A stretch of DNA of 64,000 nt, from assembly GCF_028368995.1 (NCBI RefSeq), contig NZ_JAQNDL010000002.1:1568001-1632000 (forward strand), in the 5' to 3' direction. Origin of the DNA: Nannocystis bainbridge (lineage in GTDB: Bacteria > Myxococcota_A > Polyangia > Nannocystales > Nannocystaceae). Positions 10,962-64,000 of the stretch are shown piece after piece. The position numbers and the translations under genes were made by a program. The notes under the pieces are model-generated. The model did no database searches. It worked only from the letters and a program-made list of their open reading frames with translations, and was not told where the DNA came from. Within the stretch, counting starts at the first letter, position 1, and each line of letters begins with the position of its first letter.

Positions 10962-13900
10962 ATGTCTCTGCCCGCTCCGAGCCCGCGTGACTCGCTCAGC
11001 AGCGCCGACTTGCATCGGCTCGACCAGGCCGCGTGGTTGCTCGCCCGCAAGGAGCCCACGCCCGATCCCGACGTCCTGCTGAGCGTCGCCGCCGGGCACG
11101 TCCTGGCGCACCCCCGGGCCGGGCGCAGCGACCTCGTCATCACCCTCGTCGCGGCGATGATCGATCGCCCGCCGGCCAGCAGCGCCCGCGACGGAGCGCG
11201 GGAGGACTGCGCCGCGCGCCGCCTGGCCGACCTGCTCGCCGAGCTCGCCGGCTCTGCCGAACTCGGCTTCGTCCAGCGGGCCATTCGCCGCGGCGGCCTC
11301 GACTTCACCCTCGCCTTGCCGGCGGCGCGCCGGATCCGTCGCGCCCTCAAGCGGGCCCTCAGCGACGGCAAAGCCAGCGACGCCGAGGTCGACGCCCTGC
11401 GCGGCCTGGCCACCGCCGGCTGGGAGTCGCTGCTCGACGCCCTCGCCCGCTCGCTCGCCCTCGACGGCGACGACGAGGTCCTCACCGACGTCGCCCTCGA
11501 CGATCCGAGCGACGGCTCCGGCGCCCGGCTAGCCCGCGTGCGGGTCTTGCTCAGCCCGAGCCGGCCGATGCCGGATCTCGAGCTGCTCGCGCGCGCCGGC
11601 GAGGCCTCGACGCTGAGCCGGCGGGTGGGTCGCTTCATCCTCCTTCAGCGGATCGGCACCGGCGCCATGGGGGTCGTCTACGCCGCCTACGACGATCGCC
11701 TCGATCGCAAGGTCGCCATCAAGGTCCTGCGCCCGCAGGAGCCCAAGCACAGCGCCCGCGCCCAGCTCCGGCTGCTGCGTGAGGCCCAGGCCATGGCCCG
11801 GCTGGCGCACCCCAACGTCGTCGGCGTCCACGAGGTCGGCACCGAGGGCACCGATGTCTACGTCGCCATGGAGTTCATCCGCGGCGTCACCGTGCAGGCC
11901 TGGCTCGCCGACAAGTCGCGGACCTGGCAGGAGGTCGTCGACGTGTTCGTGCAGGCCGGGCGCGGCCTGGCCGCCGCGCACGCCGTCGGCCTCGTGCACC
12001 GCGACTTCAAGCCGAGCAACGTCATGATCGGCGAGGACGGTCGCGCCCGCGTCCTCGACTTCGGCCTGTGTCAGACCGGCGAGGACGCCAGCGGCGAGCA
12101 CACCCGCTCGACCGGCTCGCTGAGCCGCGATCGCAACGCCGTCTCCGAAAAGGTCACCCAGGGTGGCGAGGTCGTCGGCACGCCCGCGTACATGCCTCCC
12201 GAGCAGTTCAGCGGCCGCCTCGTCGGCCCTGCCTCCGATCAGTTCGCCTTCTGCGTCTCGCTGTACGAGGCGCTCTACGATCAATTGCCGTTCCCCGGCG
12301 ACACCGTGCACGAGCTGGCCCACGCGGTCGCGCGCGGCGACGTGCGCGACCCGCCGCGGCTGACGCGGGTGCCGGCGTGGGTCCACAGCGTCGTCCTGCG
12401 CGGGCTTCGACCTGACTCGAAGGACAGGTTCTCCGGCCTCGACGCCCTGCTGCGCGCGCTCGATCGCAAGCACGTCCTCGGCCGTCGCACCTACGTCGGC
12501 GCCCTCGCCGTCGCCGGCGTCGCGGCCCTCGCCGGCTTCTTCGCCGCCAAGACGCAGGAACCGCGGGTCGACCCGTGCAGCCACGGCACCGCCGAGATCC
12601 ACGGCGTGTGGGACGGCGAGCGCCGGCGGGCCGCCGAGCAGGCGTTCGTGGCCGCCGGCCCGGCCTTCATCCACGAGGTGTGGCCGCAGGTCAACGAGCG
12701 CCTCGACCTCTACATGAACGACTGGTCGAGCGCGCACGCCGACGCCTGCGAGGCGCGTCGGCGCGGCGAACAGTCGGACGAGCTCGTCGATCGCCGCATG
12801 GCCTGCCTGGCCCAGCGCAAGGCCGCCCTGGCCGAGGCCGGCGCGCTGCTGGCCGAGCGCGACCAGACCGTCGCCGTGCACGCGCTCGAGCTCACCTACA
12901 AGCTCCCCGCCATCGATCGCTGCAACGACCTCGTCGCCCTCCAGGCCGACGTCGCCCCGCCCGACGACCCCGACGTGCGGCGCCGCGTCGCCGACGTCGA
13001 GGAGGGCCTCACCCGCGTCGTCAGCCTCGAGCACATCGGCCGCACCTCGCAGGCCCTCGAGCTCGCCGACCACCTGCTCGCCGACGCCGAGGCCATCGGC
13101 TACAGGCCGCTGCTGGCGCGCGCCTTGCTCAACCGCGGCCGCCTCTCGCTCAACCGCACCGCCATGGTCGAGCCGCAGTTCGAGATGCTGCAGGCCGCGC
13201 TGCACACCGCGCTCGCCGCCGGCGTCGACGACGTCGCCGGCGAGGCCATGGCCCACATGTTGTTCGTGCGCGGCCGCCTGCCCGGCGGGGCCGCGCGCGC
13301 GCTCGAGGACCTCGGCCACTACGCCGCCTTCATCTCGCGCCTGCCCAAGCCCGGCCACCTGCAGGGCCTCCTGCTCAACAACGCCGCGGTCGTCACGGTG
13401 GCCAGCGGCGACGTCGAGCGCGCGCGCAAGCTCTACGCCGAGGCGCTGGCGGTCAAGCGGGCCAGCAACGACGCCCCGCTCGAGATCGCCTACAGCCTGA
13501 CCAACCTCGCGATCCTCGAGGACGACGGCGACGCGCGCGCCCACGACTTGGCCGAGGCCGTGCGGATCTTCGAGCGCGAGCTGGGGCCGGCGCACCCGCA
13601 GACGATCGAGGCGCGGCTGACCGCCAGCGCATACATCCGCAACCCCGAGTCCGCGCGACGGATCTTGCGGCCCGGCTGCGACGCGCTGGTCCGCTTCTCG
13701 CCGGGCGATCCGGCCTCGCGCGCCCGCTGCCTGGCGATGCTCGGTTATCTCGCCGGCGAGGCCGGCGACGCCGACGAGTCGCGGCAAGTGTTGCGGCAGG
13801 CGGCCGCGCTCCTGGACGGTGAACCGTTCGACGGCGACCTGATCCGCGGCGTCGACGTCGCGCTGATCCGGGGCTTCGCCGCGCTCGAGGGCGGCGATCA

Positions 13901-15450: not shown

Positions 15451-16917
15451 GTGGACCCTCTCTTCCCCTGCCTCGCGGCTCCCGACGGTCGCATCGTCCT
15501 CACCGTCGGCGACGACTCGTTCTCCGATCGCCAGCTGCTCGCCGCCGCCCGCCGCCACGCTCAGGCCCTCGCGCGCGCCGGAATCGCCCCGGGCGACCGC
15601 GTCGGCGTGTGGACCCTGCCGTACCTCGGCACCGTCGTCGCCCTGGTCGGCGGCGCCCTCGCCGGCGTCGTCACCGTCCCGCTCAACCCCAGGCTCGGCG
15701 AGCGCGAGTGCTCCCACATCGCCGCCGACGCGGCCCCGCGCTGCTGCTTCGCCGCCCGCCCCGCCGAGTGCCCCGAGAGTCCGCTCGGCCCCGCGATCGC
15801 CGTCTCCGAGGACATGTCGGATGCAGCATGTCCCGAGGGACATCAAGACTTTCACCGCGCCGACGAGCGCCCGCTCCTCCTCATTTACACCTCGGGCACC
15901 ACCGGCGCGCCGAAGGGGGCCGTGCTCACCGCCGCGGGCGTGGCCGCCAACATCGACGGCCTCGCCCGGGCCTGGCAGTGGACCGCGCGCGACACCGTCG
16001 TCCACGCCTTACCGCTGTTCCACGTCCACGGCCTCGTGCTCGGCCTGTTCGGCAGCCTGCGGATCGGCGGCCGCCTGCACTGGCAGCCGCGCTTCGAGCC
16101 CGTCGCCCTCGCGGCGGCCGTGCGTGGCGGCGGCGTGCTGTTCGCCGTGCCGACCATGTACGTCCGCCTCGCCGAGCTCGCCGAGCGCGACGCCTCGATC
16201 GCGGCCGACCTCGGCGCCGCGCGGCTCCTGATCTCCGGCTCCGCCGCCCTGTCCGCGCGTGAGCATCGACGTCTCGCCGCGATCACCGGTCGCGGCGTCT
16301 ACGAGCGCTACGGCCTCACCGAGACGCTGATCGTGTGCGCCGTCCCCACCTCGGGCCCGCCGCGCCCGGGCCTCGTCGGTCCGCCGCTGCCCGGCGTCGA
16401 GGTCCGCCTCGTCGACGACGCCCGGCGCCCGCTCGACGTCGCCGACGACGCCACCATCGGCGAGATCGCCGTCCGCGGCCCCAGCGTGTTCGCCGGCTAC
16501 CTCGGCCGGCCCGAGGCCACCGCCGCCGTGCGCGACGCCGACGGGTGGTTTTACACCGGCGACCTCGCCACCCGCACCGACGACGGCGCCTATCGCATCG
16601 TCGGTCGGCGCGCCACCGACCTGATCAAGAGCGGCGGCTTCAAGATCGGCGCCGGCGAGATCGAAGCCTGCCTGCTCGAGCACCCCGACGTCGCCGAGAC
16701 CGCCGTCGTCGGCCTGCCCGACGACGACCTCGGCGAACGGATCGTCGCCTTCGTCGTCGCCCGCGACCCAGCGCTCCCTCCGCCCGGTGAGCAGCTCGTC
16801 GATCACGTCGCGCGCGCGCTCGCCCCGCACAAGCGCCCGCGCGACGTCCGGTTCGTCGAAGCCCTGCCCCGCAACGCCATGGGCAAGGTGATCAAGGCCC
16901 GGCTCACCCGCCCCTGA
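15451..16917 (+). CDS. AMP-binding acyl-CoA synthetase (MatB/malonyl-CoA synthetase-like)
   Basis: YTSGTTGAPKG, LPLFHVHGL, ERYGLTET, TGD, GRRATDLIKSGG and LPRNAMGKV. Confidence 0.9.
   Translation: MDPLFPCLAAPDGRIVLTVGDDSFSDRQLLAAARRHAQALARAGIAPGDRVGVWTLPYLGTVVALVGGALAGVVTVPLNPRLGERECSHIAADAAPRCCFAARPAECPESPLGPAIAVSEDMSDAACPEGHQDFHRADERPLLLIYTSGTTGAPKGAVLTAAGVAANIDGLARAWQWTARDTVVHALPLFHVHGLVLGLFGSLRIGGRLHWQPRFEPVALAAAVRGGGVLFAVPTMYVRLAELAERDASIAADLGAARLLISGSAALSAREHRRLAAITGRGVYERYGLTETLIVCAVPTSGPPRPGLVGPPLPGVEVRLVDDARRPLDVADDATIGEIAVRGPSVFAGYLGRPEATAAVRDADGWFYTGDLATRTDDGAYRIVGRRATDLIKSGGFKIGAGEIEACLLEHPDVAETAVVGLPDDDLGERIVAFVVARDPALPPPGEQLVDHVARALAPHKRPRDVRFVEALPRNAMGKVIKARLTRP
15810..15844. 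repeat. 14-bp palindromic-unit array inside the acyl-CoA synthetase CDS
   Basis: Junctions at 15813, 15827, 15841; perfect unit TGTCCCGAGGGACA; encodes EDMSDAACPEGH. Confidence 0.8.
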
Positions 16918-18749: not shown

Positions 18750-18750
18750 T

Positions 18751-18816
18751 CGACATGCCCGCGAGGACATGTCCTCGCGGTCATGCCCCTGAGAACATGC
18801 CCGCCGGGACATGCCC
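18751..18816. repeat. 14-bp palindromic-unit array between convergent genes
   Basis: CATG at 18754, 18768, 18782, 18796, 18810. Confidence 0.9.
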
Positions 18817-20685: not shown

Positions 20686-21537
20686 ATGCCTCGCCTCACC
20701 GACCTCCTCCGTCCCGCCGCCGACGCGGCCGTGTTCTCTGCCCATGGCCGCGGCTTCGCCGGCTCGGTCGACCGCGCCGTCGTCCTGCTCGCCACGGTCG
20801 CCGGCCTCGCCTGTCCTTACGGACCTGTCCTTTGGTACAAGTCACTCCTGCTCGCCTTCGCCGGGGTCGCCGGCCTCGTGCTGCTCGGGGCCGGCGGCGC
20901 CACGGTGGTCGCCGCCCTGCGCGGCCGGCGGATCCAGGGCCCGCGCAAGCGCGCCGCGCTGATCGGCCGCAGCGCCGGCGACACCGCCCTCGCCGCCTGG
21001 ATCGCCGCCTGCTTCGCCGCCTGGCCGATGGCCCGCGCCGACGCTGGTGAGCCGATCGGCCTCGTGTGGTCGCTCGCCGAGGCCGGCGGGCTGTCGGCCG
21101 TCGTCTGGCAGACCCTGCTCGGCGTGCTCGTCCTCGACGCCTGGCTGTACTGGAAGCACCGCCTGCTGCACACGCGCCTGCTGTTCCCGTTCCACCGCGG
21201 CCACCACGTCTACCGCGACCCCACCCCGTTCGCCGGCTTCGCCGTCGGCCCCGTCGAATCGGTCATGACCTTCTGGCCGATCCTCCTGGTCGCGTTCCCG
21301 TGGGCCACCCATTTCGGCCCGACCTACGTCGCCCTGGTCGTGGGATTCGTGCTGCTCAATTATTATTTGCACTGCGGCGTCACCTACCGCGCCTTGGAGG
21401 CCACGCTGCCGCGCCTGTTCGTCAACACCTCGGCGTTCCACAACCGCCACCACGCCAACGCCGAGGTCAACTTCGGCGAGGCGCTGACGCTGTGGGACCA
21501 CATCTGTCGCACGCGGGCCGAGGACCGGCGGCGCTAG
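20686..21537 (+). CDS. Sterol desaturase / fatty acid hydroxylase family protein
   Basis: His boxes HRLLH, HRGHH, YLHCG and HNRHH, plus NFG and TM helices. Confidence 0.85.
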   Translation: MPRLTDLLRPAADAAVFSAHGRGFAGSVDRAVVLLATVAGLACPYGPVLWYKSLLLAFAGVAGLVLLGAGGATVVAALRGRRIQGPRKRAALIGRSAGDTALAAWIAACFAAWPMARADAGEPIGLVWSLAEAGGLSAVVWQTLLGVLVLDAWLYWKHRLLHTRLLFPFHRGHHVYRDPTPFAGFAVGPVESVMTFWPILLVAFPWATHFGPTYVALVVGFVLLNYYLHCGVTYRALEATLPRLFVNTSAFHNRHHANAEVNFGEALTLWDHICRTRAEDRRR

Positions 21538-21640: not shown

Positions 21641-24169
21641 ATGACGCCGCAGCACGAACCCGGCCAGGCCCGTCCGTTCCGCGTGATGAAGTTCGGCGGC
21701 AGCTCGGTCGGCGCCGCCGATCGCCTGTTCCAGGCCCTCGACCTGATCGCCCGCGAGCGCGACAACGGCCCGGTCGCCGTCGTCGTCTCGGCCATGGCCG
21801 ACACCACCGATCGCCTGATCGCCGCCGTCGACGCCGCCGCCGCCGGCCTGCCGGGCGACCCCCACGTCGACGCCATCGAGGCGCTGGTCGCCAACGTCGC
21901 ACATGACCTCACGGACAGGCTCGAACGCGCAGGTCTCTTGAAACATGTCCCCGAGGACATGTCCTCCGCGATCGCCGAGCTGATGCGCCCGCTGCGGCAG
22001 CTGCTGCTCGGCGTCGGCCTCGTGCGCGAGCGGACCTTGCAGACCCGCGACCTCGCGCTGTCGTTCGGCGAGCGGGCCAGCGTCCTGGTCGTGCAGCGCC
22101 TGCTGGTCGCGCGCGGCGTCGCGGCCGTCGGCGTCGACGCCCGCGACTGGACCGTCACCGACGACCGCTTCGGCCAGGCCACCCCCGATCTGGCCGCCTC
22201 GGCGCTGCAGCTCGGCGCCCTGTCGGTCGCGTGGAGCGGCGCCGTCAGCGTGCACACCGGCTTCCTCGGCCGCACCCGCGACGGTCGCAGCACGACGCTC
22301 GGCCGCAACGGCTCCGACTACACCGCCGCCCTGCTGGCCCAGATCCTCGGCGCCGCCGAGCTGCAGATCTGGACCGACGTCTCCGGGGTCATGACCGCCG
22401 ATCCCGAGCTCGTGCTCGAGGCCTACCCGGTCGCCCACCTCAGCCAGGCCGAGGCGCTCGAGCTCGGCGACCTCGGCATGATCTTGCACCCGCGGACCAT
22501 GTCGCCGCTGATCGAGGCCCAGATCCCGCTGCGCGTGCGCAACACGGCCCGCCCCGACGATCCGGGCACCCTCATCGACGCCGTCGGCAACCGCGACGAG
22601 CGGCGCCCGGTCTGCGTCGTCTCGACCGAGGACCTCGCGCTCCTCGACCTCGAGACCCGGCGCCGCCTCGGCCACGAGCGGATCGGCGAGCGAGCCCTGC
22701 GCGCGCTCGCCAACGCCGGCGTGCCCGTGTGGGTCGGCACCTCGGCCCCGCGCGATCGGGCCTTCGCCGTCGCCGTCGCCCGCCAGGACGCCGCCCTCGC
22801 CGAGGCCGCCCTCGCCGCCGAGTTCGGCCGCGCCGCCGACGGCGAGCCGATCGACCTCGCCCCGATCCGCGTGCGTCAGCCCGTCACCCTCCTCACCCTC
22901 GTCGGCGAGGCCATGGGTCGCACCGCCAACGTCGCCGGCCGGTTCTTCGGCGCGCTCGGCCAGATCGGCGTGCTCGTCCGCGCCAGCGCCCAGGGGGCCG
23001 GCGAGCGCTCGATCTCCGCCGTCGTCGACGGCGACGACACCGCCACCGCCGTGCGCACCGTCCACGCCGCCTTCAACCTCGCCGCCCAGGAGGTCAACCT
23101 CCTCGTCCTCGGCAAGGGCACCGTCGGCCGCGAGCTCCTCTATCAGTTGACCGCCCAGCAGCGCGCGCTGGCCGAGCACCAGGACGTCCTGATCAAGCTC
23201 GCCGGCGTCGCCGACAGTCGACGCGTCGTGTTCGACCCCGGCGGCATCCCGCTCGCGCGCTGGGAGGCGCGGCTGCAGGAGTCGCATGTCCCTCCGGACA
23301 TCTCGGCCCTGCTCGAGCGCCTGCGTCGCCTGCCCGTGCCGATCCTCGTCGACTGCACCGCCGAGGACACCACCGCCGTCTACGAGGCCGCGCTCGCGCT
23401 CGGCATCCACGTCGTCAGCGCCAACAAGCGCCCGCTCGCCGCCACCTGGCCCGTGAGACAGGGCCTCATGGACATGGCCCGCAAGCGCCATCGCCGGTGG
23501 GAGTACGAGACCACCGTCGGCGCCAGCTTGCCGGTGATCGACACCCTCAAGGGCCTCGTGCGCACCGGCGACACCATCCTCCGCATCGAGGGCAGCTTCT
23601 CCGGCACCCTCGGCTACCTCGCCGGCGAGCTGTCGCGCGGCGTCCCGCTGTCGCACGCCGTGCGCGACGCCCGGGCTCGCGGCTACACCGAGCCGCACCC
23701 GCGGGACGACCTGTCCGGCCTCGACGTCGCGCGCAAGGCCCTGATCCTCGCCCGCGAGCTCGGCCTCCAGCTCGACCTCGACGCCGTCGTCGTCGAGCCG
23801 TTCGCCCCGCCCGAGGCGCTCGGCCACGACGACCTCGAGCGGTTCTTCCTCGCCCTCGCCGAGCACGACGCCGCCGTCGCCGCCCGCATCGAGCGCATGC
23901 AGAAGGCCGGCCGCGTCCTCCGCTACCTCGCCCAGATCGATCCATCGGCCCCCGCCGGCGCCCCGGCCGTGCGCGTCGGCCCCGTCGAGGTCGAGCCCGA
24001 TCACCCCGCCGCTCGCCTGCGCGGCACCGAGGCCTTCGTCGCCTTCACCACCGATCGCCACCGCGCCTACCCGCTGCTCGTCCAGGGCGCCGGGGCTGGC
24101 GGCGCCGTCACGGCCGCCGGCGTGCTCACCGACATCCTCAAGATCGCCATGTCCCTGCGTGGTCGCTGA
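21641..24169 (+). CDS. thrA: Bifunctional aspartate kinase / homoserine dehydrogenase
   Basis: MKFGGSSV, TLGRNGSDYTAA, WTDVSGVMTADP, ACT region, GKGTVG, YETTVGASLP, EPHPRDDLSGLDVARK and GAGAGGAVTAAGV. Confidence 0.93.
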   Translation: MTPQHEPGQARPFRVMKFGGSSVGAADRLFQALDLIARERDNGPVAVVVSAMADTTDRLIAAVDAAAAGLPGDPHVDAIEALVANVAHDLTDRLERAGLLKHVPEDMSSAIAELMRPLRQLLLGVGLVRERTLQTRDLALSFGERASVLVVQRLLVARGVAAVGVDARDWTVTDDRFGQATPDLAASALQLGALSVAWSGAVSVHTGFLGRTRDGRSTTLGRNGSDYTAALLAQILGAAELQIWTDVSGVMTADPELVLEAYPVAHLSQAEALELGDLGMILHPRTMSPLIEAQIPLRVRNTARPDDPGTLIDAVGNRDERRPVCVVSTEDLALLDLETRRRLGHERIGERALRALANAGVPVWVGTSAPRDRAFAVAVARQDAALAEAALAAEFGRAADGEPIDLAPIRVRQPVTLLTLVGEAMGRTANVAGRFFGALGQIGVLVRASAQGAGERSISAVVDGDDTATAVRTVHAAFNLAAQEVNLLVLGKGTVGRELLYQLTAQQRALAEHQDVLIKLAGVADSRRVVFDPGGIPLARWEARLQESHVPPDISALLERLRRLPVPILVDCTAEDTTAVYEAALALGIHVVSANKRPLAATWPVRQGLMDMARKRHRRWEYETTVGASLPVIDTLKGLVRTGDTILRIEGSFSGTLGYLAGELSRGVPLSHAVRDARARGYTEPHPRDDLSGLDVARKALILARELGLQLDLDAVVVEPFAPPEALGHDDLERFFLALAEHDAAVAARIERMQKAGRVLRYLAQIDPSAPAGAPAVRVGPVEVEPDHPAARLRGTEAFVAFTTDRHRAYPLLVQGAGAGGAVTAAGVLTDILKIAMSLRGR
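21899..21964. repeat. 14-bp palindromic-unit array inside thrA
   Basis: Junctions at 21902, 21916, 21930, 21944, 21958; perfect unit TGTCCCCGAGGACA. Confidence 0.85.
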
Positions 24170-25350: not shown

Positions 25351-25505
25351 GGACATGTGTGAACAAACATGTCCGATCTACCATGTCTCTTGCGCCATGG
25401 CCTTTGGCCTATGTCCTTCAGGACCTGCACATCAGAGCATGTTCTCTGGGACATGGCCCTTGATCTCCATGCAAAAGGACATGTCCGATAAGACATGTCA
25501 CATGC
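25351..25505. repeat. Long 14-bp palindromic-unit array between convergent genes
   Basis: Junctions at 25354, 25368, 25382, 25396, 25410, 25424, 25438, 25452, (25466 degenerate), 25480, 25494. Confidence 0.9.
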
Positions 25506-26795: not shown

Positions 26796-26888
26796 GCCCT
26801 CACCGGATGCACGTCGCGGGCCACGGCCCCCGAGGTCCTCGCGCCGGGGCCGCGACGCCGCGGACTCTCACATGTCCTTCGGGACATC

Positions 26889-32076: not shown

Positions 32077-32148
32077 CCCGAAGAGCATGCGCGAACGGCC
32101 ATGCTCGAAAGGGCATGTCCCCGAGGACATGCCCTCCGGGACACGCTC
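32069..32148. repeat. 14-bp palindromic-unit array between convergent genes
   Basis: Junctions at 32072, 32086, 32100, 32114, 32128, 32142. Confidence 0.9.
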
Positions 32149-35474: not shown

Positions 35475-35609
35475 CCGCGACGCGCCTCGCCTCGCGCCAC
35501 GCCTCGCCGGAGCCTCGCGCGGAGGTCGCCATCGGCCCCGCTCGCGCGTGCTGCAACTCTCGCGGCCGCGATCGTGAGCGCGCGGGCGCGTGATATCGTG
35601 CCCGGCGTC

Positions 35610-36089
35610 ATGACCACGTCCATCGAAGGCGCCCCTGCCGGGCTCGTCGTCGCCGACGAGCAGGCCGCCGCCGTCCACTTTCTCGTCGACGAGGAGCTCT
35701 ACCCGCTCCCCGCGATCTACGGCGCCGCCTACGTCTTCATCGACCGCTGTTATGTCTTTTTGGACAGGCCCGAGCCCGCGCGCGTGCGCGTGGTCCTGAC
35801 CGCCAAGACGGGCGCGGCCGCCCCCGAGGCCCTGCGCGCGCTGATCGGCGAGTTCGCCAACGAGCTGCTCTCGTGCGCCTTCCGCCACCAGATCGCCCAG
35901 GACAACCGCGTCCTCATCGAGACCGCCACCATGCAGGCGCTGGCCGGCGCCATGGGCCAGCCCAGCCTCGACGACCTGGCCAAGTTCGACTTCAGCGACC
36001 AGGGCTTCGACGACCCGCTCGGGATCGCCATGTCGTGGGAAGAGAAGCACGGCCGCAAGGCGCCCAAGACCGGCGAGGGCGCGCCGTGA
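35610..36089 (+). CDS. hxsD: His-Xaa-Ser system protein HxsD-like
   Basis: VDEELYPLPAIYGAAYVFIDRCYVFL...GEFANELL pattern; upstream of an HxsB-like radical SAM gene. Confidence 0.75.
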   Translation: MTTSIEGAPAGLVVADEQAAAVHFLVDEELYPLPAIYGAAYVFIDRCYVFLDRPEPARVRVVLTAKTGAAAPEALRALIGEFANELLSCAFRHQIAQDNRVLIETATMQALAGAMGQPSLDDLAKFDFSDQGFDDPLGIAMSWEEKHGRKAPKTGEGAP

Positions 36090-37818: not shown

Positions 37819-37884
37819 CGCCCTGCGCGTTCGGACATGTCCCCGGGGGCATGCCCGAATGAACATGGTCGATCGCACATGTCG
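37819..37884. repeat. 14-bp palindromic-unit array between convergent genes
   Basis: Junctions at 37822, 37836, 37850, 37864, 37878. Confidence 0.9.
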
Positions 37885-42529: not shown

Positions 42530-44374
42530 TCACACCCGTCTGCGACGGCGGCGGGCGCCCGCGAGCGCCAGCAGGCCCAACAGACCTGGCGCCAGCCGAT
42601 CTTCCGATCCGCCGAGCGAGCAGGCGCCGTGCTGGCCGTAGCCTGGTGGCAAGGCGCCGCCGCCGGCCGAGCTCGGGCCCTCGCCGCCGGTCGACGACGA
42701 CGCGTCGCCGCCGCTGCCGGGGATCCCGTCGGTGGTCGGCACCTCGCCGCCGCTCTCGTCCCCGCCCGTGCCCGTGCTGCCCTCGCTGTCCCCGCCGGTC
42801 CCGCCCTCGGGCGGGCACAGCGGATCGGCGGGATCGCCCTCGGGCGCGCATTGCGGGTCGTCGAGCATGTACACCGCCGAACCTGTCCCCTGGACCAGGA
42901 ACGGCTCCGGCCGCACATCTGTCCCTTGGGGCATGGCCATGAGGTCAGCCAGAGCGATCGCCTGCGCCGTCGCCGGGTCGAACTGCCAGGCCGCCGCGAC
43001 CTCGGCGCTGGCGATGAGGCGGCGGAACCCGGCGTCGACCAGCCACAGCGTCGGGTCGCCGGCGACCTGGACCAGCGCCGGCGCGCCCGCGATCGCCTGC
43101 CACTCGGGGATCGCGTTCAACGTCGGATCGTCGACCTTCGCCATCTGCCAGAACGTCGACAGCGACCACGCCTGCAGCGCCGCCGGGTCGGGCACGTGGC
43201 GGCGCACGCCCGGCGGCAGCGGCGGCGGCGGGCAGGCGAACTGGCGCGGGCTGCCGTCGAGCTGCGCCGGTCCGTCGCCGCCGAGATCGACCCCGTAGAC
43301 GTAGACCGGGTGCGATGCGCCGTCGAGCAGGCTGCGCGGCAGCGGCGACGAGAACCCGTGCGCGCACGAGCCGATCGCCATGCACAGATCGTCGCGGTGC
43401 TGGTCGGCCGTCAGCGTCACCTCGACCGCGTTGGCGTCGCCGTGCGCCGCCAGGAAGCTGACGATCGCGTCGACCGGCGCGTCCTTCTGATCCGGATCCC
43501 AGGCCCAGCCCTGGATCCCCGCCGCGCAGTCGGCCGCGTCGAACGAGCCCGCGGCCGGCTGGTTCGGCGGCACCACGCACCCTCCTTGCGCCTGCAAGAT
43601 CTCGATGTCGGCGCCGAAGTAGAAGCGGACGATGTCGACGACTTTGTAGCCCTTCGTGTTCTCGAGGCAGCGCGCGCCCCACTGCGACATGCAGCCGCGG
43701 TTCTGCCCGTAACCATTGGTCCCGAGGTTCTCCGGGAACACGAACCCGAGCGACGTCTGGTCGACGTCGTAGACCGTCTTGCCCTCGTTGAAGGTCACGT
43801 ACTGCTCGGTGCCGGACACCGTCGGATTGTCGGTGTCGATGCAGCTCGCCGGCTGCTTGTTGTCGCCGGCGACGTAAAAGGCGTAGGTCAGCCAGCCGTT
43901 GTAGGACAGGTACTGCCCGGCCGTCGCCGCCACCGCGTCGTAGTGGACCTGCTGCGGCTCGGCCCCGCACGTGTACACCTGGCAGCCCTGGCCGTCGCAG
44001 ATCTGGCCGTCGTTGAACATCGCGTAGTAGGCCACCGAGCGGGCCGCGATCGCCTGGGCCTTGAGCGCCTCGAGGTTGGCCCCGCCGTTCTCGCAGGTGA
44101 TCACGTGCGGCAGGTAATCGGTCTCCATCGCCCGCGACACCCCCTCGACGACGATGTCGCAGTAGGCCCCGCCGAGCGGGACCGGCACCGCCGTCAGCGG
44201 CTCGGGCAGCGGCATCGCCCAGTCCTGCGGCGAAGTCATGCCGCGCGGGGCGCCTGACCTATCGGACAGGTCCGAAAGACCATCCGCGAGCTCGACGCGC
44301 TCGACCTCCGCGTCCGCCCGGGCGGGGTCACAGGCCGAGAGCGACAGCAGCACGAAGAGGGCGGCGCGGGGCAT
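42530..44374 (-). CDS. SpoIID/LytB-domain protein with MYXO-CTERM-like anchor
   Basis: YLPHVITCE...EALKAQAIAARS, CQVY, GQNRGCMSQWGA; C-terminal GAC...LLALAGARRRRRRV. Confidence 0.82.
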   Translation of the reverse strand: MPRAALFVLLSLSACDPARADAEVERVELADGLSDLSDRSGAPRGMTSPQDWAMPLPEPLTAVPVPLGGAYCDIVVEGVSRAMETDYLPHVITCENGGANLEALKAQAIAARSVAYYAMFNDGQICDGQGCQVYTCGAEPQQVHYDAVAATAGQYLSYNGWLTYAFYVAGDNKQPASCIDTDNPTVSGTEQYVTFNEGKTVYDVDQTSLGFVFPENLGTNGYGQNRGCMSQWGARCLENTKGYKVVDIVRFYFGADIEILQAQGGCVVPPNQPAAGSFDAADCAAGIQGWAWDPDQKDAPVDAIVSFLAAHGDANAVEVTLTADQHRDDLCMAIGSCAHGFSSPLPRSLLDGASHPVYVYGVDLGGDGPAQLDGSPRQFACPPPPLPPGVRRHVPDPAALQAWSLSTFWQMAKVDDPTLNAIPEWQAIAGAPALVQVAGDPTLWLVDAGFRRLIASAEVAAAWQFDPATAQAIALADLMAMPQGTDVRPEPFLVQGTGSAVYMLDDPQCAPEGDPADPLCPPEGGTGGDSEGSTGTGGDESGGEVPTTDGIPGSGGDASSSTGGEGPSSAGGGALPPGYGQHGACSLGGSEDRLAPGLLGLLALAGARRRRRRV

Positions 44375-44671
44375 GAGAGACACCTCCAACTTTCGCATGA
44401 TGCCCCGGGCAGTTTCGCGCCACAAGAGAACTCGAGGTGCCGTCGAGGCCCCATCGCGTGCGCGCATCGGTCCACCCGCGGACCTCGCACCTCGCCGACG
44501 CGCCGGCCCCAGCCGGCCCCGCGCGCGACCGCGGCCGCACGAGACGCGGAGCCTGACGCCGGCCGCAGCGAGGACGTGGAGCATCACCCGACCTGCAGTT
44601 CACGCGTCCGCAGTCCAGGCGCGATGACGGGAATGCTCCGCCTGCGCTACGGTTTCCTGGTCGCTGACGTG

Positions 44672-47600
44672 ATGGTTGCGAACCGACGCGTGACATCGCC
44701 TTGGACCTGGCTCGCGCGCGCGCTGGGCCTCGGCGTGTTCGCGCTCGCCTGCGAGCCCGCCGATCCGTGCCAGCGCACCGGCGCCGGCGCGCTGTGCCTC
44801 GACCTCGCCAATGCACGGACCTACGGCTGGGGCCTTTCCACAGCCAGCCTCGCTGTCGCCGACCTCGACGCCGACGGCGTGCCCGACATCGTCGGCGCCG
44901 GTGACGCTCGCGGCACGGTGGGCGCGATGTGGGGCCGTCCCGGCGCACATGGCGTTCAGGACATGTTCGATGGGACATGGACATCCTGGTGGGTCGGCGC
45001 GCCCACGCGCGACCTCGTCGTCGCCGATCTCGACGGCGACGGCCGGCTCGACGTCGCCACCGCCCTGCCCGAGAGCGGTGAGATCGCGGTCCTGCGCGGC
45101 CGCGGCGGGCGCGAACTCGGCGAGCCGCAGCGGATCGCCGTCGACGCGGGCCCGCGCCGGCTCGTCGCCGCCGACCTCGACGGCGCGGGGCCGCCCGAGC
45201 TCGTGGTCGTCAACGAGACCGCCGGCACGCTGACGATCGTGCGCGACCTCGTCGCCGATCCGCCGCTCGCCGTCGGCCCCGGCGCGCGCGACCTGGCGGT
45301 CGCCGACCTCGACGGCGACGGTCACCGCGACGTCGCGGTCGCCGTCACCGAGGCCGGCGCGATCCAGGTTCTGCTCGGCGACGGGCACGGCGGTCTCGTG
45401 ACCGGCCCTCGGCACGCCGTCGGCCTCGCGCCCACGGACATCGTCGCCGCCGATCTCGACGGCGACGGCGCGATCGATCTCGCCACCCTCGACGTGCTCG
45501 CCGACGACGTCACGATCCTCCACGGCGACGGCCGGGCTCGCCTGCGCGCGCGCACCCGCTGGCCCGTCGATCTCGATCCGGTCGACCTCGCGGTCTCGCC
45601 CGACTCTACCGGCCAGCCTGTCCTTTACGTCCTGTCCGAAGTGACAGGCAACGTCCAGCGCGTCGACCCGCGCCGCGGCGTGGTCCTGACCGCCAGCCCG
45701 CGCACCTCCCCGAGCCAGCTGCTCGTCGGCGATCTCGACGGCGACGGCCGCGACGCCCTCCTTTATGCTCGCGGCGGCGACGGCCTCGGCGAGCTGGCGC
45801 CCGAGCGCGGCCTGCGACTCGAAGCGCTGTGGCAGCGCGAGCGCACCGGCACCGCCTTCCCGGTCGACCTCGAGGCTGACGGCGTCGACGAGCTGCTCAT
45901 CGATCTCGACGATCAGCCCGAGCCCGATCCGGCGACCGAGCCGTCGCGGGTCGTGGCGCTGGTCCGCGGACCCGAACCCCTCGACCTCGAGCTCGAGACC
46001 GGCCTCGCGGACGCGCTGCAGGGCGCCGTCGCGGCCGACTTCGACGGCGACGGACGCAACGACCTCGTGCTGTGGACGCGCAGCCATACGGCTGTCCTCC
46101 TGCGCCGCCCCGACGGCAGCTTCGCCCCCGGCGTGTCTGCCCCCTACTTCGGCGAGCCGGAGGAGCACGCCGTGGTGCGCGGCGGCGACCGGGCCCGGCT
46201 CGTGTTCGCCGGCCCGGGCGGCCTCTCTTTCCTGCACCTCGGCCCCGAGGGCGCGCTCGTCGTCGAAGCCGAGGTCTCGCTGCAAGGCCGCTTCAGAGGC
46301 CTCTCCACCATCGATCTCGCCGGCGACGGTCGCACCGACCTCGTGGTCCACGTGGCGGAGTCGCTGGTGTTGGTCGAGGGCCTCGATCCCGACGCGACGC
46401 GGGTGATCGAGCTGCCCGCGCTCGCCGACAGCCGCGCGCTCGTCCTCGTGCCTGGCGACCACGCGGGGCCCGACGCGCTGGTCTGCACCTCGGACGGCCT
46501 CGTCCACGCGCCCGACCTGTTCGGTCCTTCGCCTGGCGATACGACCCTGCTCGACCCCGATCGCTGCCAGCAGCTCGGCCTCTTCGATCTCGACGGCGAC
46601 GGCCGACGCACCGAGGTCGTCAGCCTGCGCTCGTCGGCCCTGCTGGGCGACCTCGTGCGCGTCCACATGACGCCGTGGCAGCGCGACGACGGGGCCTGGC
46701 GCTCGCTCGCCCCGCGGACCGTCGTCCATGTCCAGGGCTCGCCGCGGCTGATCGCGCAGGACGGCGGTCGGATGGCCCTGCTGCGCAATACGACCGCGAG
46801 CGACATGGTCGCGGAGGACATGTCCTTCGGGCCAGCTCTCCTCGCCCGCCCGCGCGCACAGCTCGACGTCTTCAGCGACGCGACGCTCGGTGATTTCGAC
46901 GGCGACGGCGCCCTCGACGTGTTCGTCCGCGTCGGTCGCCCCGGCAATACCGGCCGCCTCGGCTTCGCGTTCGGCGACGGCGACGGCGGCTTCGGCCCGA
47001 CCGAGCTGCGCGGCGGCCCGGGGCGCGACGACCTGTTCTCTTATCGAGCCCGCGCTGTCCAGCTCGACGACGACGCCGGCGACGAGATCGTCCTGCTGGT
47101 CCATTCGCAGGATCAGACGCGCTCGCTGCTGGTCCGCCTCGATCTCGAGGGCGGCGAGCTGCGACGGCGTGACCTCCTGCAGATCCCCTCGTTCTGGCCT
47201 GCGGAGCTGCTGGTCGGCGATCTCGACGGCGACGGTCGGCGCGACCTCCTCGTCCTCGCTACCGTACCGGGTGGCGGGCCGGCCACCGGCGGCGGGCTGC
47301 TCCCACGCGCCGCCTTCCTGCGCAACCTGGACGGGGGGCTCGCCCCTGCTCGCTGGCAGGACCTCGACGGCATCGTCGGCTTCAACTCGCAGCTCGCCGA
47401 TCTCGACGGCGACGGACGCCTCGACCTGTACTCGAACGGCCTCGGCATGCAGGTCGCGTTCGGCCGCGGCGACGGTCGTTTCGGGCCCATGCGGACGTGG
47501 AGTCCGCTCGCGCCCGACGAAATCGCCGTCGCCGATATCGACCGCGACGGCCGCCCCGACGTGCTCGCCGTCGTCTTCGACTACGACACCCCGCCCCCGC

Positions 47601-51584: not shown

Positions 51585-52331
51585 GTGACGGAACGCGGAT
51601 CCGACCCCGGCAGCCCCGGCCTCGCGGCAGCAAGCGACACGGCGCTCGCCGAGCTCGCGCAGCGGTCCGCGGCGCTCGAGGGTCAGCCTGCCGAGTCCAT
51701 CCTCGCCTGGGTGTTCGAGCGCTGGGCCGGCCTGCGGATCGGCCTCAGCTCCGCCTTTGGGCCCGAGGGGTGCGCCCTCATCCACCTCGCGCGCGCCGTC
51801 CGTCCCGACGTCCCGATCTACACCATCGACACCGGCTACCTGTTCGCCGAGACCCTCGCCGTGCGCGAGGCCTTCCGGGCCCAGGGCGCCGACATCCGCG
51901 TCGTCGAGCCGCTCGTCACCCTCCGCGCCCAGGCCGAGCGGCACGGCCCCGACCTGTTCGCCCGCGATCCCGACGCTTGTTGCGAGATCCGCAAGGTCGA
52001 GCCCATGCGCCGCGTCCTCGACCGGCTCGACGTCTGGATCACCGCCATCCGCCGCGACCAGGCCAGCACCCGCGCCGGCACCCCGATCCTCGGCACCGCG
52101 CGGCGGGCCGACGGCGGCCTGGTCATCAAGGTCGCGCCGCTGGTCGCGTGGACGCGCAAGGACACCTGGCGCTACCTCCTCGACCACGACGTCCCCTACA
52201 ACCCGCTGCTCGACGCCGGCTACACCAGCATCGGCTGCGAGCCGTGCACCGCCCGCCCGCCGGGCGACGACGAGCGCGGCGGCCGGTGGTCGGGCACCGG
52301 CAAGACCGAGTGCGGGATCCACCACCTCTGA
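51585..52331 (+). CDS. cysH: (Phospho)adenylyl-sulfate reductase, Fe-S type
   Basis: IDTGYLF, CCEIRKVEP, GYTSIGCEPCT, ERGGRW, KTECGIH. Confidence 0.92.
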   Translation: MTERGSDPGSPGLAAASDTALAELAQRSAALEGQPAESILAWVFERWAGLRIGLSSAFGPEGCALIHLARAVRPDVPIYTIDTGYLFAETLAVREAFRAQGADIRVVEPLVTLRAQAERHGPDLFARDPDACCEIRKVEPMRRVLDRLDVWITAIRRDQASTRAGTPILGTARRADGGLVIKVAPLVAWTRKDTWRYLLDHDVPYNPLLDAGYTSIGCEPCTARPPGDDERGGRWSGTGKTECGIHHL

Positions 52332-52423
52332 CCCTGTCCTTCGGGGCATGCCCCTTCGAACCTGTCCCTGGCGACCTGTCCGAACGAACCTGTCCTTGAT
52401 CACCTGCCCTTGAGGACCTGTCC
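52330..52423. repeat. 14-bp unit array (CCTG-junction variant) filling the cysH-metallophosphoesterase gap
   Basis: Junctions at 52333, 52347, 52361, 52375, 52389, 52403, 52417. Confidence 0.9.
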
Positions 52424-55162: not shown

Positions 55163-56869
<1,707 letters not shown>

Positions 56870-56872: not shown

Positions 56873-57059
56873 GTAGGTGTCCGTTCGGACATGCCCTTGG
56901 CGGCATGTCCGAAGCGCCCTGTCGCTTCGGACATGCGCCTTCGAGCATGTCCCTCGATACACCTCACCGGCGCGCCTCGGCATGTCCTTCGACATATGCG
57001 CTGCCGCCCCGCACGCTGTCTTCGCCGCAGTGATCGCGCATGTCCTTCGAGACATGCGC
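56873..57059. repeat. Compound 14-bp palindromic-unit array between convergent genes
   Basis: Junctions at 56876, 56890, 56904, 56918, 56932, 56946, 56960; then 56981, 56995; then 57039, 57053. Confidence 0.9.
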
Positions 57060-61149: not shown

Positions 61150-61229
61150 TCTCATGTCGGTAAGGACATGTCCCACGGAGCATGTCCTCGAGCACAGGCT
61201 CCAAAGAACATGTCCTTCCGTACAGCGCC
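61150..61229. repeat. 14-bp palindromic-unit array between convergent genes
   Basis: Junctions at 61153, 61167, 61181, 61195, 61209, 61223. Confidence 0.9.
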
Positions 61230-62532: not shown

Positions 62533-64000
62533 GTGGCAGGCGCAAAGTCCACGGTCCGCACGGGCCGGCAGTTCTCGAGCCTCGAGCAGGCCGACACGGC
62601 CACGCCGCCCGCCTCGTCGGTGTCCGCGCCGGACGACGCGCGTCACCTCAGCCGGCTGGCCAGCGAGGCCCGGCGCGGCGACGCGCTCGCCCCCGAGCGG
62701 CTGGCGATGGAGGCGATCAAGGCCCGCCTGTTCCCCGGCGAGGTCGCGCCCGCCAAGATCGGCCGCTTTACCGTCCTGCGGCAGATCGGCGCCGGCGGCA
62801 TGAGCGTCGTCTACGCCGCCTACGACGAGCGCCTCGATCGCAGGATCGCCGTCAAGCTGCTGCGCTCCGGCGAGGCGGCCGACAACCAGGCGCGGCTGCT
62901 GCGCGAGGCGCAGGCGATGGCCCGCCTGGCCCACCCCAACGTCGTCGCCGTGCACGAGGTCGGCGCCTGGGAGAACCAGGTCTACGTCGCCATGGAGTTC
63001 GTGCGCGGGCCCAACCTGCGCGACTGGTTGCAAGCTGTCCCGCGGGACATCCGCGAGATCCGCGAGGTGTTCGTGGCCGCCGGCCGGGGCCTCGCCGCCG
63101 CCCACCACGCCGGCCTGGTCCACCGCGACTTCAAGCCGGCCAACGTGCTCGTCGGCGACGACGGCCGCGTGCGCGTCGGCGACTTCGGCCTCGTGCGTCA
63201 CGCCGGCGACGAGCCGCTCGAGCCGCCCGCGCCCGCACCTGTCCCTTCGACCAGCATCCTCAGCGCCGGCGCGCGGGTCGAGCTCTCGACCACCCTCACC
63301 CAGACCGGCGCGATCCTCGGCACGCCGGCGTACATGTCCCCCGAGCAGCACCTGGGCCGGCCCGTCGACGCCCGCAGCGACCAGTTCTCGTTCTGCGTCG
63401 CCCTCTACGAGGCCCTCTACGGCGCCCCGCCGTTCGCCGGCCGCGACCTGTTCGAGCTGGCCCGCCGCGTGCTCGCCGGCGCGGTCTCACCTGTCCCCGA
63501 GGACAGCAAGGTCCCCGCCTGGCTGCGGCGCGCGCTCGTCCGCGGCCTCGCCGTCGATCCCGCCGCGCGCTGGCCCAGCATCGACGACCTGCTCGACGAG
63601 CTCGAGCGCGATCCGGAGCGGGCCTGGCGGACCCGCCGCAGCGCCGCGCTGGTCGGCCTCGCGGTGGTCGTCGTGGTCGTCGGCCTGCTCGTCGTCGCGC
63701 GCGAGCGGGCCGACGCGGCCACGCAGGCCCAGCGGGCCGAGGCCGCCGCCGATCGCCAGCGGCGGACCGCCGAGGACGAGCGGGCCGCCGCCGAGCAGGA
63801 GCGCGACCGGGCCTTCGTCGACGCCAAGGCCCAGCTCGCCGAGGCCCAGCGGGCCCAGGCCGCCCTCAAGGACGCGCTCGCGGCCGCCGAGGCCCAGCGC
63901 CTCAACGCCGAGGCCCACGCCGCCCTGGCCGAGCACGCGCTGGGCGAGGCCGAACGGCGCCGGCGCGAGGCCGAGGGCCAGCGCAAGGAGGCCGAGCGCC
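62533..64000 (+). CDS. Hanks-type Ser/Thr protein kinase (partial, runs off the window end)
   Basis: Translated by hand: IGAGGMSVVY, IAVK, HRDFKPAN, DFGL, GTPAYMSPEQ, then TM and coiled coil. Start uncertain (62494, 62533 or 62707). Confidence 0.9.
   Translation, partial: MAGAKSTVRTGRQFSSLEQADTATPPASSVSAPDDARHLSRLASEARRGDALAPERLAMEAIKARLFPGEVAPAKIGRFTVLRQIGAGGMSVVYAAYDERLDRRIAVKLLRSGEAADNQARLLREAQAMARLAHPNVVAVHEVGAWENQVYVAMEFVRGPNLRDWLQAVPRDIREIREVFVAAGRGLAAAHHAGLVHRDFKPANVLVGDDGRVRVGDFGLVRHAGDEPLEPPAPAPVPSTSILSAGARVELSTTLTQTGAILGTPAYMSPEQHLGRPVDARSDQFSFCVALYEALYGAPPFAGRDLFELARRVLAGAVSPVPEDSKVPAWLRRALVRGLAVDPAARWPSIDDLLDELERDPERAWRTRRSAALVGLAVVVVVVGLLVVARERADAATQAQRAEAAADRQRRTAEDERAAAEQERDRAFVDAKAQLAEAQRAQAALKDALAAAEAQRLNAEAHAALAEHALGEAERRRREAEGQRKEAER

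Follow-up and report, generated by a model that had tools for sequence, protein, structure and literature searches.

What is the short sequence that recurs in 14-bp phase both between genes and inside coding sequences of Nannocystis bainbridge, and what keeps it there? The question arises from a 64,000-nucleotide stretch of the genome (C3:1568001-1632000 of an assembly of 11.05 Mb in five contigs; G+C content 72%), hereafter the window, in whose coordinates all positions without a contig name are given. A preliminary description of the window had reported phased 14-bp units overprinted on many genes and suggested that some of these were built by substitution, under selection for the DNA site itself at regular intervals. 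Our analysis of the window, the whole assembly and related genomes indicates that the units probably belong to a genus-restricted family of hairpin repeats resembling repetitive extragenic palindromic (REP) elements, whose intergenic arrays would serve as transcript-end hairpins and whose copies inside open reading frames (ORFs) are under nucleotide-level constraint of the kind described for the cyanobacterial palindrome HIP1.

The repeat unit is a 14-bp hairpin module

The elementary unit is the module TGTCC-N4-GGACA, with a 5-nt arm, a free 4-nt loop and a second 5-nt arm. Where modules abut head to tail, the 10-bp palindrome GGACATGTCC (the core) appears every 14 bp, and neighbouring cores are able to pair into stems of up to 10 bp. 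We regard the arm-loop-arm unit as the module and the core as the place where two modules abut because, in a genome-wide half-site analysis, the former junction is the commoner, with 1987 exact copies against 956 for GGACA joined directly to TGTCC. A reversed, composition-matched control word occurs 3 times in the genome. Of the core, the window has 11 exact copies and the genome 956, besides 3160 with one mismatch; modules with at most one mismatch number 56 in the window, compared with 1.65 +/- 1.42 (largest, 8) in 100 dinucleotide shuffles. Near-exact cores are spaced genome-wide by 14 bp in 602 cases, by 28 bp in 214, by 42 bp in 146 and by 56 bp in 43; any other spacing up to 120 bp occurs at most 13 times. 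Departures from the core are not random decay: among the variants of its centre, the transversions CCTG (192) and CAGG (153) far outnumber the transitions CGTG (13) and CACG (14).

The conserved object is a hairpin because compensatory covariation links the arms across the N4 loop and not the halves of the palindrome. Across the genome, core position 8 covaries with position 3 of the next core (odds ratio (OR) 2.4, p 1e-13), position 9 with 2 (OR 4.0, p 6e-10), position 6 with 5 (OR 4.9, p 4e-16) and, for transversions, position 10 with 1 (OR 2.1, p 9e-5); the outer half of the 10-bp stem between neighbouring cores covaries as well (OR 4.8, p 2e-7), whereas mirror positions inside one core give ORs of 0.29-1.6. 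The core variants CCTG and CAGG pair with each other across loops (OR 4.9), and the covariation across the loop is seen separately in spacers and in ORFs (OR 4.6 and 3.3 at two positions). A two-module hairpin has a folding energy of -16.5 kcal/mol. Intergenic arrays fold better than shuffles on both strands (z -3.5 to -6.4), short in-ORF copies only marginally better (z -1.5 to -2.4), and the 5-genome alignment of the array at 32097-32148 contains the same nested hairpins, in which double compensation is seen for 3 of 18 pairs. The 14-bp interval therefore reflects hairpin geometry and not a rule of chromosome spacing. Regular spacing along the chromosome was rejected at the kilobase scale: distances between arrays are over-dispersed (coefficient of variation 1.4), and their density is fairly even along the contigs.

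Other definitions of the unit were discarded. The 10-bp core as the primary, dimer-binding unit was abandoned, as the junction module is twice as frequent and bears the covariation, and a perfect duplex palindrome through the loop centre was abandoned on the basis of loop self-complementarity (0.29 observed, 0.33 expected). A logo of the 1987 modules with 16 bp on either side has no conserved flanks, which rules out a larger mobile element around the modules, and contains no flanking tetranucleotide of the GTAG/CTAC type beyond the neighbouring half-modules. The modules abut in phase; spaced inverted doublets are not the arrangement. Rfam has no match to the arrays of the window, its single match there being a tRNA gene (3981-4054, minus strand).

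Copies inside ORFs exceed what codon usage provides

Genes were called with a simple, crude codon-usage caller (8144 genes, 86% coding), on which the ORFs rest outside the genes checked against Pfam. By this annotation, 811 of the 1987 exact modules (~40%) and 315 of the 956 exact cores lie at least 45 nt inside ORFs. When synonymous codons were permuted within each gene, leaving the proteins unchanged (20 shuffles), exact modules in the ORFs of the genome fell from 810 to 26.2 +/- 3.4, near-exact modules from 2545 to 450 +/- 19, exact cores from 314 to 37.1 +/- 6.8, and pairs of cores 14 bp apart from 86 to 1.0. In the ORFs of the window, 7 exact modules compare with 0.30 in the shuffles (largest, 2), and 26 near-exact modules with 5.35 (largest, 8). 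The in-gene copies are thus far more frequent than after synonymous shuffling, the opposite of what the preliminary description had named as its refutation, and every site that it cited carries the motif at the cited position or within 2-3 bp of it. Its recurring peptides GHVP, DMS and CP.GH proved to be translations of a single DNA word, with GHV(P), DMS and (T)CP coming from the three frames of the core; 111, 181 and 23 exact cores, respectively, use these frames. Its remark that the A/T-ending codons of the motif are otherwise uncommon was also borne out, with such third positions making up 27.9% (1125/4026) inside the motif and 6.1% elsewhere, a 4.6-fold enrichment of rare codons. Along the gene, exact in-ORF elements are evenly distributed over the first 80% of its length, and the last two deciles hold 75 and 31, compared with 100-156 each.

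Selection on these peptides, or chance arising from codon usage, would account for a few matches, namely the one in hxsB that encodes HTDMT, a peptide also present in outgroups, and the one at 63330, which in our reading is dictated by the conserved kinase peptide YMSPE. As a general explanation, this has a negligible chance of being right and was dismissed: the DNA word recurs in every one of the three frames and in non-coding DNA as well, protein-preserving synonymous shuffling removes 88-97% of the matches, and silent sites are conserved (see below).

In-ORF copies arose by substitution and by insertion

Fourteen in-ORF sites were set against sequences that lack the motif there, namely orthologues in other genera of the family or more distant homologues. 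With a unit of 14 bp, the reading frame is kept only by steps of three modules (42 bp) or by substitution, and the in-ORF copies have two kinds of origin, in-frame insertion or expansion at some sites and substitution at constant length at others. The length is unchanged at 9 of the 14 sites, which are those in hxsB (36475), hxsD (35753), FA_hydroxylase (20812-20839), a gene of the major facilitator superfamily (MFS; 38900-38927), thrA (23287), the weak thrA site at 23456, two genes elsewhere on the contig, and the peptide-driven hxsB match at 36684. In-frame insertions are found at 3 sites: thrA 21941-21964 (8 residues), an RlmKL-like gene (41381-41446) and a gene at C3:1454762 (4 residues). 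The remaining two are the AMP-binding gene, where the motif falls in an indel-rich loop and is left unclassified because this region varies with indels relative to other genera, and lnt, where it falls in an unaligned N-terminal extension.

The equal-length sites show how closely the DNA word has been fitted to the protein. The hxsD peptide DRC[Y/F]VFLDR is the same as in 5 outgroups, and is encoded by TGT TAT GTC TTT TTG GAC AGG where outgroup codons are TGC TTC GTG TTC CTC GAT CGG; the module is written by the rare codons TAT, TTT, TTG and AGG, which five genomes of the genus share without change. In hxsB, GGA CAT GTC CCC GAG GAC stands opposite, for example, GGC GAA GTC CCG CCC GAC, with no indel relative to 5 outgroups. 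FA_hydroxylase, likewise with no indel relative to the one alignable outgroup orthologue (70% identity), has TGT CCT TAC GGA CCT GTC CTT opposite TCC CCG TGG GGC GTG CTC GCC. The MFS site is equal in length to 2 of 3 outgroups (WTPEGWTPP), and many bases have changed together in this overprint, e.g., ACC to TGT, TGG to CAT and ACG to GTC. At thrA 23287, there is no multi-residue indel relative to distant homologues. The other thrA site, 21941-21964, has 8 residues more than 8 distant homologues and is therefore an insertion. The RlmKL-like protein is ~20 residues longer at its array than in 5 outgroups, and 41381-41422 is a strain-specific 42-bp tandem duplication (3 modules, 14 codons) that corresponds to a gap in 4 of 4 congeners. 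The proposal that the motif was built by substitution at some sites thus stands for several of the sites without length change, but does not extend to the 3 in-frame insertions, which include a 42-bp expansion.

The in-frame insertions relative to outgroups and the recent expansion, as well as the REP-like copy number, hairpin form and 3'-end location, would be in keeping with a mobile element similar to REPINs or miniature inverted-repeat transposable elements, with a dedicated transposase and with in-ORF copies inserted in frame like the Rickettsia palindromic elements (RPEs). The replication-strand signal described below is of the kind expected for single-strand hairpin processing, and IS200/IS605 elements have been linked to the lagging-strand template (available text of PMC6006769). 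We consider such an element very improbable. Apart from the 9 of 14 sites without length change, the logo shows neither a conserved tetranucleotide beside the modules nor a target duplication or larger element around them, no presence/absence indel was found among 38 in-ORF modules between close congeners, and the profile PF01797 of the Y1 transposases, which include the REP-associated tyrosine transposases (RAYTs), had 0 matches in 11 genomes of the genus, in a search that matched 6 of 14 control genomes and 16 other relatives.

Age and silent-site constraint of the in-ORF copies

Synteny with the window extends to four congeners (92-94% ThrA identity); a more distant one, G009, is too diverged at the nucleotide level beyond thrA. 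The in-ORF motifs are present at orthologous places in all four syntenic congeners, often as islands of identity inside diverged flanks (e.g., 46816, 44945 and 15810), and predate the split of these close congeners. Constraint was measured over 434 kb of synteny aligned to two congeners, G010 and G001. Third codon positions in the motif are identical in 192/205 cases (0.937) in G010 and 186/198 (0.939) in G001, compared with 0.848 and 0.842 in the background, 0.781 and 0.792 in flanks 5-34 bp away, and 0.643 and 0.595 in the loops; for motif versus flank, the OR is 4.1, with p 7e-8 (G010) and 3e-7 (G001). A/T third positions are kept in 55/63 and 51/61 cases inside the motif but at rates of 0.383 and 0.391 elsewhere (p 1.5e-15 and 1.6e-12), such that silent positions are held even where rare A/T-ending codons are forced. 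In spacers, the respective identities are 0.82 and 0.89 for arms, 0.50 and 0.56 for loops, and 0.65 and 0.71 for flanks. Codon positions 1 and 2 of the flanks have identities of 0.90 and 0.92 against a background of 0.93 and 0.945, showing that the in-ORF copies lie in faster-evolving stretches. Among 38 in-ORF modules, 23 are unchanged in G010 and 25 in G001, a single change is present in 11 and 8, two changes in 3 and 4, an indel in none, and each congener leaves one module unaligned. The suggestion of selection for the DNA site at regular intervals is partly supported: silent positions exceed their surroundings in conservation, in keeping with constraint at the level of the nucleic acid, but the intervals are those of the hairpin's geometry.

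Selection and a sequence-specific drive (biased repair, conversion or uptake) would fit the silent-site constraint alike. A non-functional drive, in which slippage, template switching, a short-patch repair bias or uptake in the manner of the uptake signal sequences (USS) and DNA uptake sequences (DUS) makes the modules, and these are merely tolerated where least harmful, at gene 3' ends and in variable protein loops, has a small but real chance of being the explanation. It would account for the equal-length overprint with many simultaneous base changes in the MFS gene, for the 42-bp tandem expansion and for the location of in-ORF copies in faster-evolving stretches, and the available text of PMC2817400 describes uptake sequences as likewise gathering at poorly conserved residues. 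The order of array density given below, convergent > tandem > divergent > ORF, is the one that purifying selection on a random element would give, and the excess of G.T-type variants on the G-rich strand could be single-strand damage instead of selection. However, slippage or template switching explains pairing and not the genus-wide retention of one arm sequence, and the conservation of silent A/T-ending positions (84-87%, compared with 38-39% elsewhere) would require a very efficient restoring bias. The motif abounds in non-preferred codons, whereas uptake sequences favour preferred-codon frames according to the same part of PMC2817400; uptake sequences do not form phased arrays; and since the species split neither the position nor the phase of orthologous arrays has changed, even though identity in their loops has fallen to 50-56%.

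Arrays between genes

The genome contains ~3113 arrays, 1819 of them in spacers, with up to 11 units, and 1294 in ORFs, mostly with 1-2 units (1-3 modules). Arrays are ~10-fold denser in spacers than in ORFs. Convergent spacers are occupied most often (606/1398, 43%), followed by tandem (710/4339, 16%) and divergent ones (143/1396, 10%), and array density in the divergent, promoter-containing spacers is 8-fold below that in the convergent ones. In 1807 of the 8144 genes, an array is found at most 150 bp after the stop codon, the commonest distance being 10-20 bp; long arrays gather between convergent genes and mostly begin 5-20 bp past a stop codon.

Imperfect modules carry a strand signal. 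In these, G.T wobbles are kept on the G-rich strand in 1233 cases and on its complement in 687 (790 and 397 in spacers), with a word-level skew of 1.06-1.63 per class and a value of 1.19 for 12 unrelated control palindromes as baselines. In tandem spacers, the fraction of wobbles on the G-rich strand is 0.73 where the gene is co-directional with replication and 0.61 where it is head-on (p 0.002). By the usual rule, the G-rich strand has the sequence of the leading strand and thus that of the lagging-strand template. The wobble pattern indicates a main effect of replication with a smaller effect of transcription, and is suggestive of modules that spend time folded or single-stranded at the replication fork.

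As a separate observation, the GC skew on C3 turns from positive to negative at ~1.5 Mb, on passing from the 1.25-1.5 Mb bin to that of 1.5-1.75 Mb. The turn is 70-130 kb upstream of the window and puts the latter near a replication switch point, probably the terminus.

Distribution among genomes

All 11 genomes of the genus contain modules, 114-2090 per genome, compared with 0-8 in 28 other genera. Two sister genera, represented by G013 and G011, have intermediate counts of 161 and 87 modules against 1 and 10 control words, so that the family may predate the genus or be spreading. The double palindrome is present in 8 of 10 congeners, in 0 of 30 other related genera and in 0 of 400 further genomes of the phylum. 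Literature searches on myxobacterial, Sorangium and Nannocystis repeats, palindromes and hairpins, outside subscription papers and supplements, brought up no account of the element. The range from 114 to 2090 copies in 11 genomes, through ~90-160 in two sister genera, to none in the rest amounts to a natural experiment.

A folded nucleic acid as the probable target

We consider it probable that the modules form a genus-restricted, REP-like family of hairpin repeats. Selection would act on a nucleic acid in folded form, which may be a hairpin in the RNA at transcript ends or one in single-stranded DNA at the replication fork; neither a peptide nor a 10-bp dimer-binding site would be its target. 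By analogy with REP elements and the bacterial interspersed mosaic elements (BIMEs), the intergenic arrays are probably orientation-independent transcript-end hairpins, acting as terminators or as 3'-end protectors. The in-ORF copies would be kept by the same putative sequence-specific factor or restored by a sequence-specific bias in repair or conversion.

Several observations weigh against this interpretation. With regard to transcript ends, the logo contains no T-run (a U-tract in RNA) after the modules, an array overlaps only 1 of 5 terminator-like sites in a pattern scan of 20 kb, GNRA and UUCG loops are not favoured, loop orientation shows at most a weak or inconsistent preference relative to transcription, and so does the orientation of wobbles (310 versus 262 in tandem spacers, 330 versus 416 in ORFs). 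With regard to the replication fork, the wobble excess on the G-rich strand falls to ~1.2-1.8-fold after correction for word skew, at which it is significant in 3 of 4 classes (p 2e-9, 3e-3, 5e-6 and 0.84). The G-rich strand folds better in ordinary spacers as well (832 versus 445; 936 versus 347 in arrays; p 2e-5), and the strand difference in folding energy, being largely generic to G-rich strands, was dropped as a property of the arrays. Conservation of whole elements did not exceed that of 29 composition-matched palindromes in an underpowered comparison: whole modules are conserved in 23/37 (G010) and 25/37 (G001) cases against 2/6 and 3/5 of the controls, and whole cores in 14/23 and 12/21 cases against 16/27 and 19/27, all of these being small counts with unmatched local rates. 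No trans-acting factor was identified, PF01797 giving 0 matches in the 11 genomes of the genus. Finally, the arms are conserved in sequence and not in pairing alone, which a plain hairpin role would not need, and the array at 52330-52423 is conserved in phase in 5 genomes although it does not fold, so that pairing is not the only constraint.

The last two facts would be natural for an array of binding sites in duplex DNA, of the HIP1 or nucleoid-protein type, in which a genus-specific dimer would occupy GGACATGTCC or TGTCC-N4-GGACA cooperatively at 14-bp intervals (three sites for every four turns of the helix), under chromosome-wide selection, including in ORFs, for organisation or global regulation. 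The strand symmetry of the motif, which is not oriented with respect to genes, and its specific centre variants, as opposed to decay, point in the same direction; the HIP1 palindrome, conserved within and between ORFs (available text of PMC5861425), is a precedent. Such sites nevertheless appear quite unlikely to be the answer: covariation across the loop and in the outer stem, with none between the core halves, is unexpected for a protein site, the gene 3'-end bias and the deficit in divergent relative to convergent spacers are unlike a chromosome-wide architectural site, the over-dispersed distances between arrays show no regular kilobase-scale spacing, and no candidate protein was found. 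The non-folding array at 52330-52423 may be a functionally different use of the half-site.

A more far-reaching variant of the hairpin interpretation, which we regard as decidedly improbable, is that a factor of the genus reads, and perhaps writes, the folded TGTCC-N4-GGACA on the lagging-strand template throughout the chromosome, ORFs included, without a RAYT, and that equal-length overprints arise by templated patch conversion from other copies and not by point mutation. If true, this would be a new kind of chromosome-wide cis element to which proteins are forced to accommodate.

Sites in the window and neighbouring features

The sites are listed in Table 1. The previously given gene names were corroborated by Pfam for thrA, AMP-binding, FA_hydroxylase, the radical-SAM protein HxsB, MFS, FG-GAP, Lnt and kinase, whereas the gene called hxsD (35574-36086) has no Pfam match. 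In the RlmKL-like protein, the UPF0020 domain is matched in two stretches, of which the listed one ends at residue 315, and the array covers residues ~317-339. In lnt, outgroup matches and the LNT_N domain begin at residues ~41-60; the site lies upstream of this domain and may be non-coding.

Table 1. Module sites inside ORFs and arrays between genes in the window ("4 congeners", the four syntenic ones; z, folding relative to shuffles)
Position	Feature	Gene or spacer	Sequence	Conservation and folding
12411..12438	weak two-module trace	Ser/Thr kinase gene 10962-14324 (+)	CTGAC-TCGAA-GGACAGG, 2 mismatches	weakest of the listed sites; nearly identical across 4 congeners
15810..15847	2.5 modules	AMP-binding (acyl-CoA synthetase) gene	encodes SEDMSDAACPEGH; exact module 15829	cores kept in 4 congeners; flanks and loops diverge
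18751..18816	5-module array	convergent spacer, 2 bp after stop codon		phase and cores maintained across 4 congeners with differing loops; z -3.5 on one strand, -4.0 on the other
20807..20844	2.5 modules	FA_hydroxylase (sterol desaturase-like) gene	encodes ACPYGPVLWYKS; one-mismatch modules 20812/20826	
21899..21964	4-5 modules	thrA, AA_kinase domain	strong part 21941-21964 encodes KHVPEDMS; exact module 21946, one-mismatch 21904	array conserved in 4 congeners
23287..23300	exact single module	thrA	encodes SHVPPD	identical in 4 congeners
23456..23479	weak two-core trace	thrA	3 and 1 mismatches	no indel; G009 has its own motif-like sequence at this place
25351..25500	11-slot array	convergent spacer		z -4.2
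32097..32148	4-module array	convergent spacer		z -4.8; 5-genome consensus hairpin
35753..35766	one-mismatch module	gene upstream of hxsB ("hxsD")	synonymous rare codons only	identical in 4 congeners
36475..36493	exact core and exact module	hxsB (radical SAM)	encodes EGHVPEDS; exact module 36480	identical in 4 congeners
36684..36697	one-mismatch match	hxsB	peptide-dictated, no motif gain	outgroups also encode MDAVHTDMT (HTDMT)
37833..37884	4-module array	intergenic, after hxsB stop codon		
38900..38927	two modules	MFS gene fragment 38253-39017 (-)	encodes WCPDGHVPK; exact module 38914, one-mismatch 38900	
41381..41446	five modules	RlmKL-like methyltransferase gene 40164-42398 (-)	just before NPPY motif	
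44255..44273	module and GGACAGGTCC core	near 5' end of gene 42530-44425 (-)		core kept in 4 congeners, flanks diverge
44945..44982	three cores	FG-GAP gene	GGACATGTTC..GGGACA; one-mismatch module 44964	sequence kept, flanks diverge
45617..45646	two modules	FG-GAP gene	one-mismatch module 45633	
46816..46834	exact core and one-mismatch module	FG-GAP gene	GAGGACATGTCCYTCGGGCCAGC	conserved in 5/5 genomes within unalignable flanks
52330..52423 (+)	7-slot array	whole spacer, stop codon to next ATG	non-palindromic variant (G)ACCTGTCC, direct repeat	z -1.3, no better than shuffles; 14-bp phase kept in 4 congeners
55234..55261	two modules	N-terminal extension of lnt ORF, possibly 5' leader	one-mismatch module 55234	
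56873..56952	6-slot array	convergent spacer, after lnt stop codon		z -6.4
61164..61215	4-slot array	intergenic, upstream of second kinase gene		
63036..63049	exact module	second kinase gene		arms identical in G010 and G001
63492..63505	exact module	second kinase gene		identical in G010 and G001

The window also contains repeats of other kinds. Tandemly repeated Cys-rich units (GACTGC...TGCGGCGACGGC...), 96 bp and 63 bp in period, lie inside ORFs at 17823-18004 and 59557-59751, and presumably resemble the cysteine-rich repeat proteins common in myxobacteria. A 39-bp tandem repeat at 8310-8425 (3 copies, 85% matches) in the ORF 7796-9379 gives an in-frame repeat of 13 residues. Two adjacent genes on the minus strand, 25575-26795 and 26889-28100, are paralogues that cross-match in BLAST comparisons with the congeners (69-77% identity), and the 93-bp spacer between them contains an exact module at 26873. 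In one congener, thrA (G007:C2:2649062-2651585) is matched in two overlapping pieces, residues 1-364 and 360-842, which suggests a frameshift or an assembly error.

Comparison with known systems

REP elements and BIMEs, and the related REPIN-RAYT systems, of gamma-proteobacteria are short hairpin repeats present in hundreds to thousands of copies, clustered after genes or between convergent genes, grouped into clusters of units, and kept at orthologous positions; REP elements are extragenic by definition, and a GTAG/CTAC-like flanking tetranucleotide defines them. A REPIN is a doublet of two inverted REPs separated by a spacer, and the genome that harbours it encodes a cognate RAYT in single copy. 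The Nannocystis family has the same general character, with its ~3113 arrays, occupation of 43% of the convergent spacers and folding at z -3.5 to -6.4. It departs from these systems in that the module is only 14 bp long and abuts in strict phase, there is neither PF01797 in 11 genomes nor a flanking tetranucleotide, and 1294 of the 3113 arrays (~40%) are inside ORFs.

Intrinsic terminators, among them the bidirectional ones of convergent genes, share with the arrays the G+C-rich stems, the 4-nt loops, the location 5-20 bp after stop codons, the enrichment between convergent genes and the folding on both strands. The stability of the two-module hairpin and the commonest distance of 10-20 bp from the stop codon are those of a terminator hairpin. 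In contrast to terminators, the arrays have no U-tract, use one shared stem sequence genome-wide, contain multiple hairpins and occur in ORFs as well. They would be of practical use in the study of transcript-end signals in high-G+C myxobacteria, in which U-tract terminators of the canonical type are scarce.

RPEs and the yeast mitochondrial GC clusters are hairpin-forming in-frame insertions, and thus, like the Nannocystis modules, hairpin repeats that stand in frame inside coding genes without destroying them; in the available account of the repetitive hairpin-forming elements of sponge mitochondria, these also lie within coding genes. All these insertions are ~30-150 bp long, whereas the Nannocystis unit has 14 bp; insertion in frame is seen at 3 sites (thrA 21941-64, RlmKL-like 41381-41446 and C3:1454762) and not at the 9 of 14 without length change.

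USS and DUS of the Pasteurellaceae and Neisseriaceae are motifs specific to a genus or family, with ~1000-2000 copies, a large share of them in ORFs, and their inverted pairs after genes resemble terminators. The accumulation of the modules in ORFs is comparable, with 9 of 14 sites free of indels, flanks conserved below background and a distribution over one genus and two sister genera. In the available text of PMC2817400, uptake sequences are built by substitution at poorly conserved residues, inflate certain tripeptides and use preferred-codon frames. They are, however, oriented, non-palindromic and without 14-bp phasing, and the modules are enriched 4.6-fold in rare codons. For annotation, the 14-bp phase accounts for the peptides GHVP, DMS and CPxGH and for some in-frame length polymorphisms of 42 bp.

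HIP1 (GCGATCGC) of cyanobacteria is likewise a lineage-specific palindrome hugely over-represented in both ORFs and spacers and conserved between genomes. It is conserved beyond neutral expectation, which the available text of PMC5861425 takes as selection on the DNA word. The modules resemble it in over-representation (1987 copies versus 3 of the control word; 810 versus 26 in ORFs) and in conserved third positions. HIP1 is, however, an isolated 8-mer linked to cognate methyltransferases, for which no structural role has been found, whereas the Nannocystis units are strictly phased at 14 bp, have arms that covary by compensation across the loop as in a hairpin, are ~10-fold denser in spacers and are biased toward gene 3' ends. 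If the constraint is selection, the family would join HIP1 as an independent second example of a lineage-specific palindrome shaping coding sequence at the nucleotide level, and, unlike HIP1, one with a clear structural read-out; about a thousand ORFs per genome would then carry non-protein information that holds rare codons in place. Each property of the family has a precedent in REP, HIP1, USS or RPE, but their combination, a phased 14-bp hairpin without a RAYT, ~40% intragenic, holding rare codons and growing by 42 bp, appears to be new.

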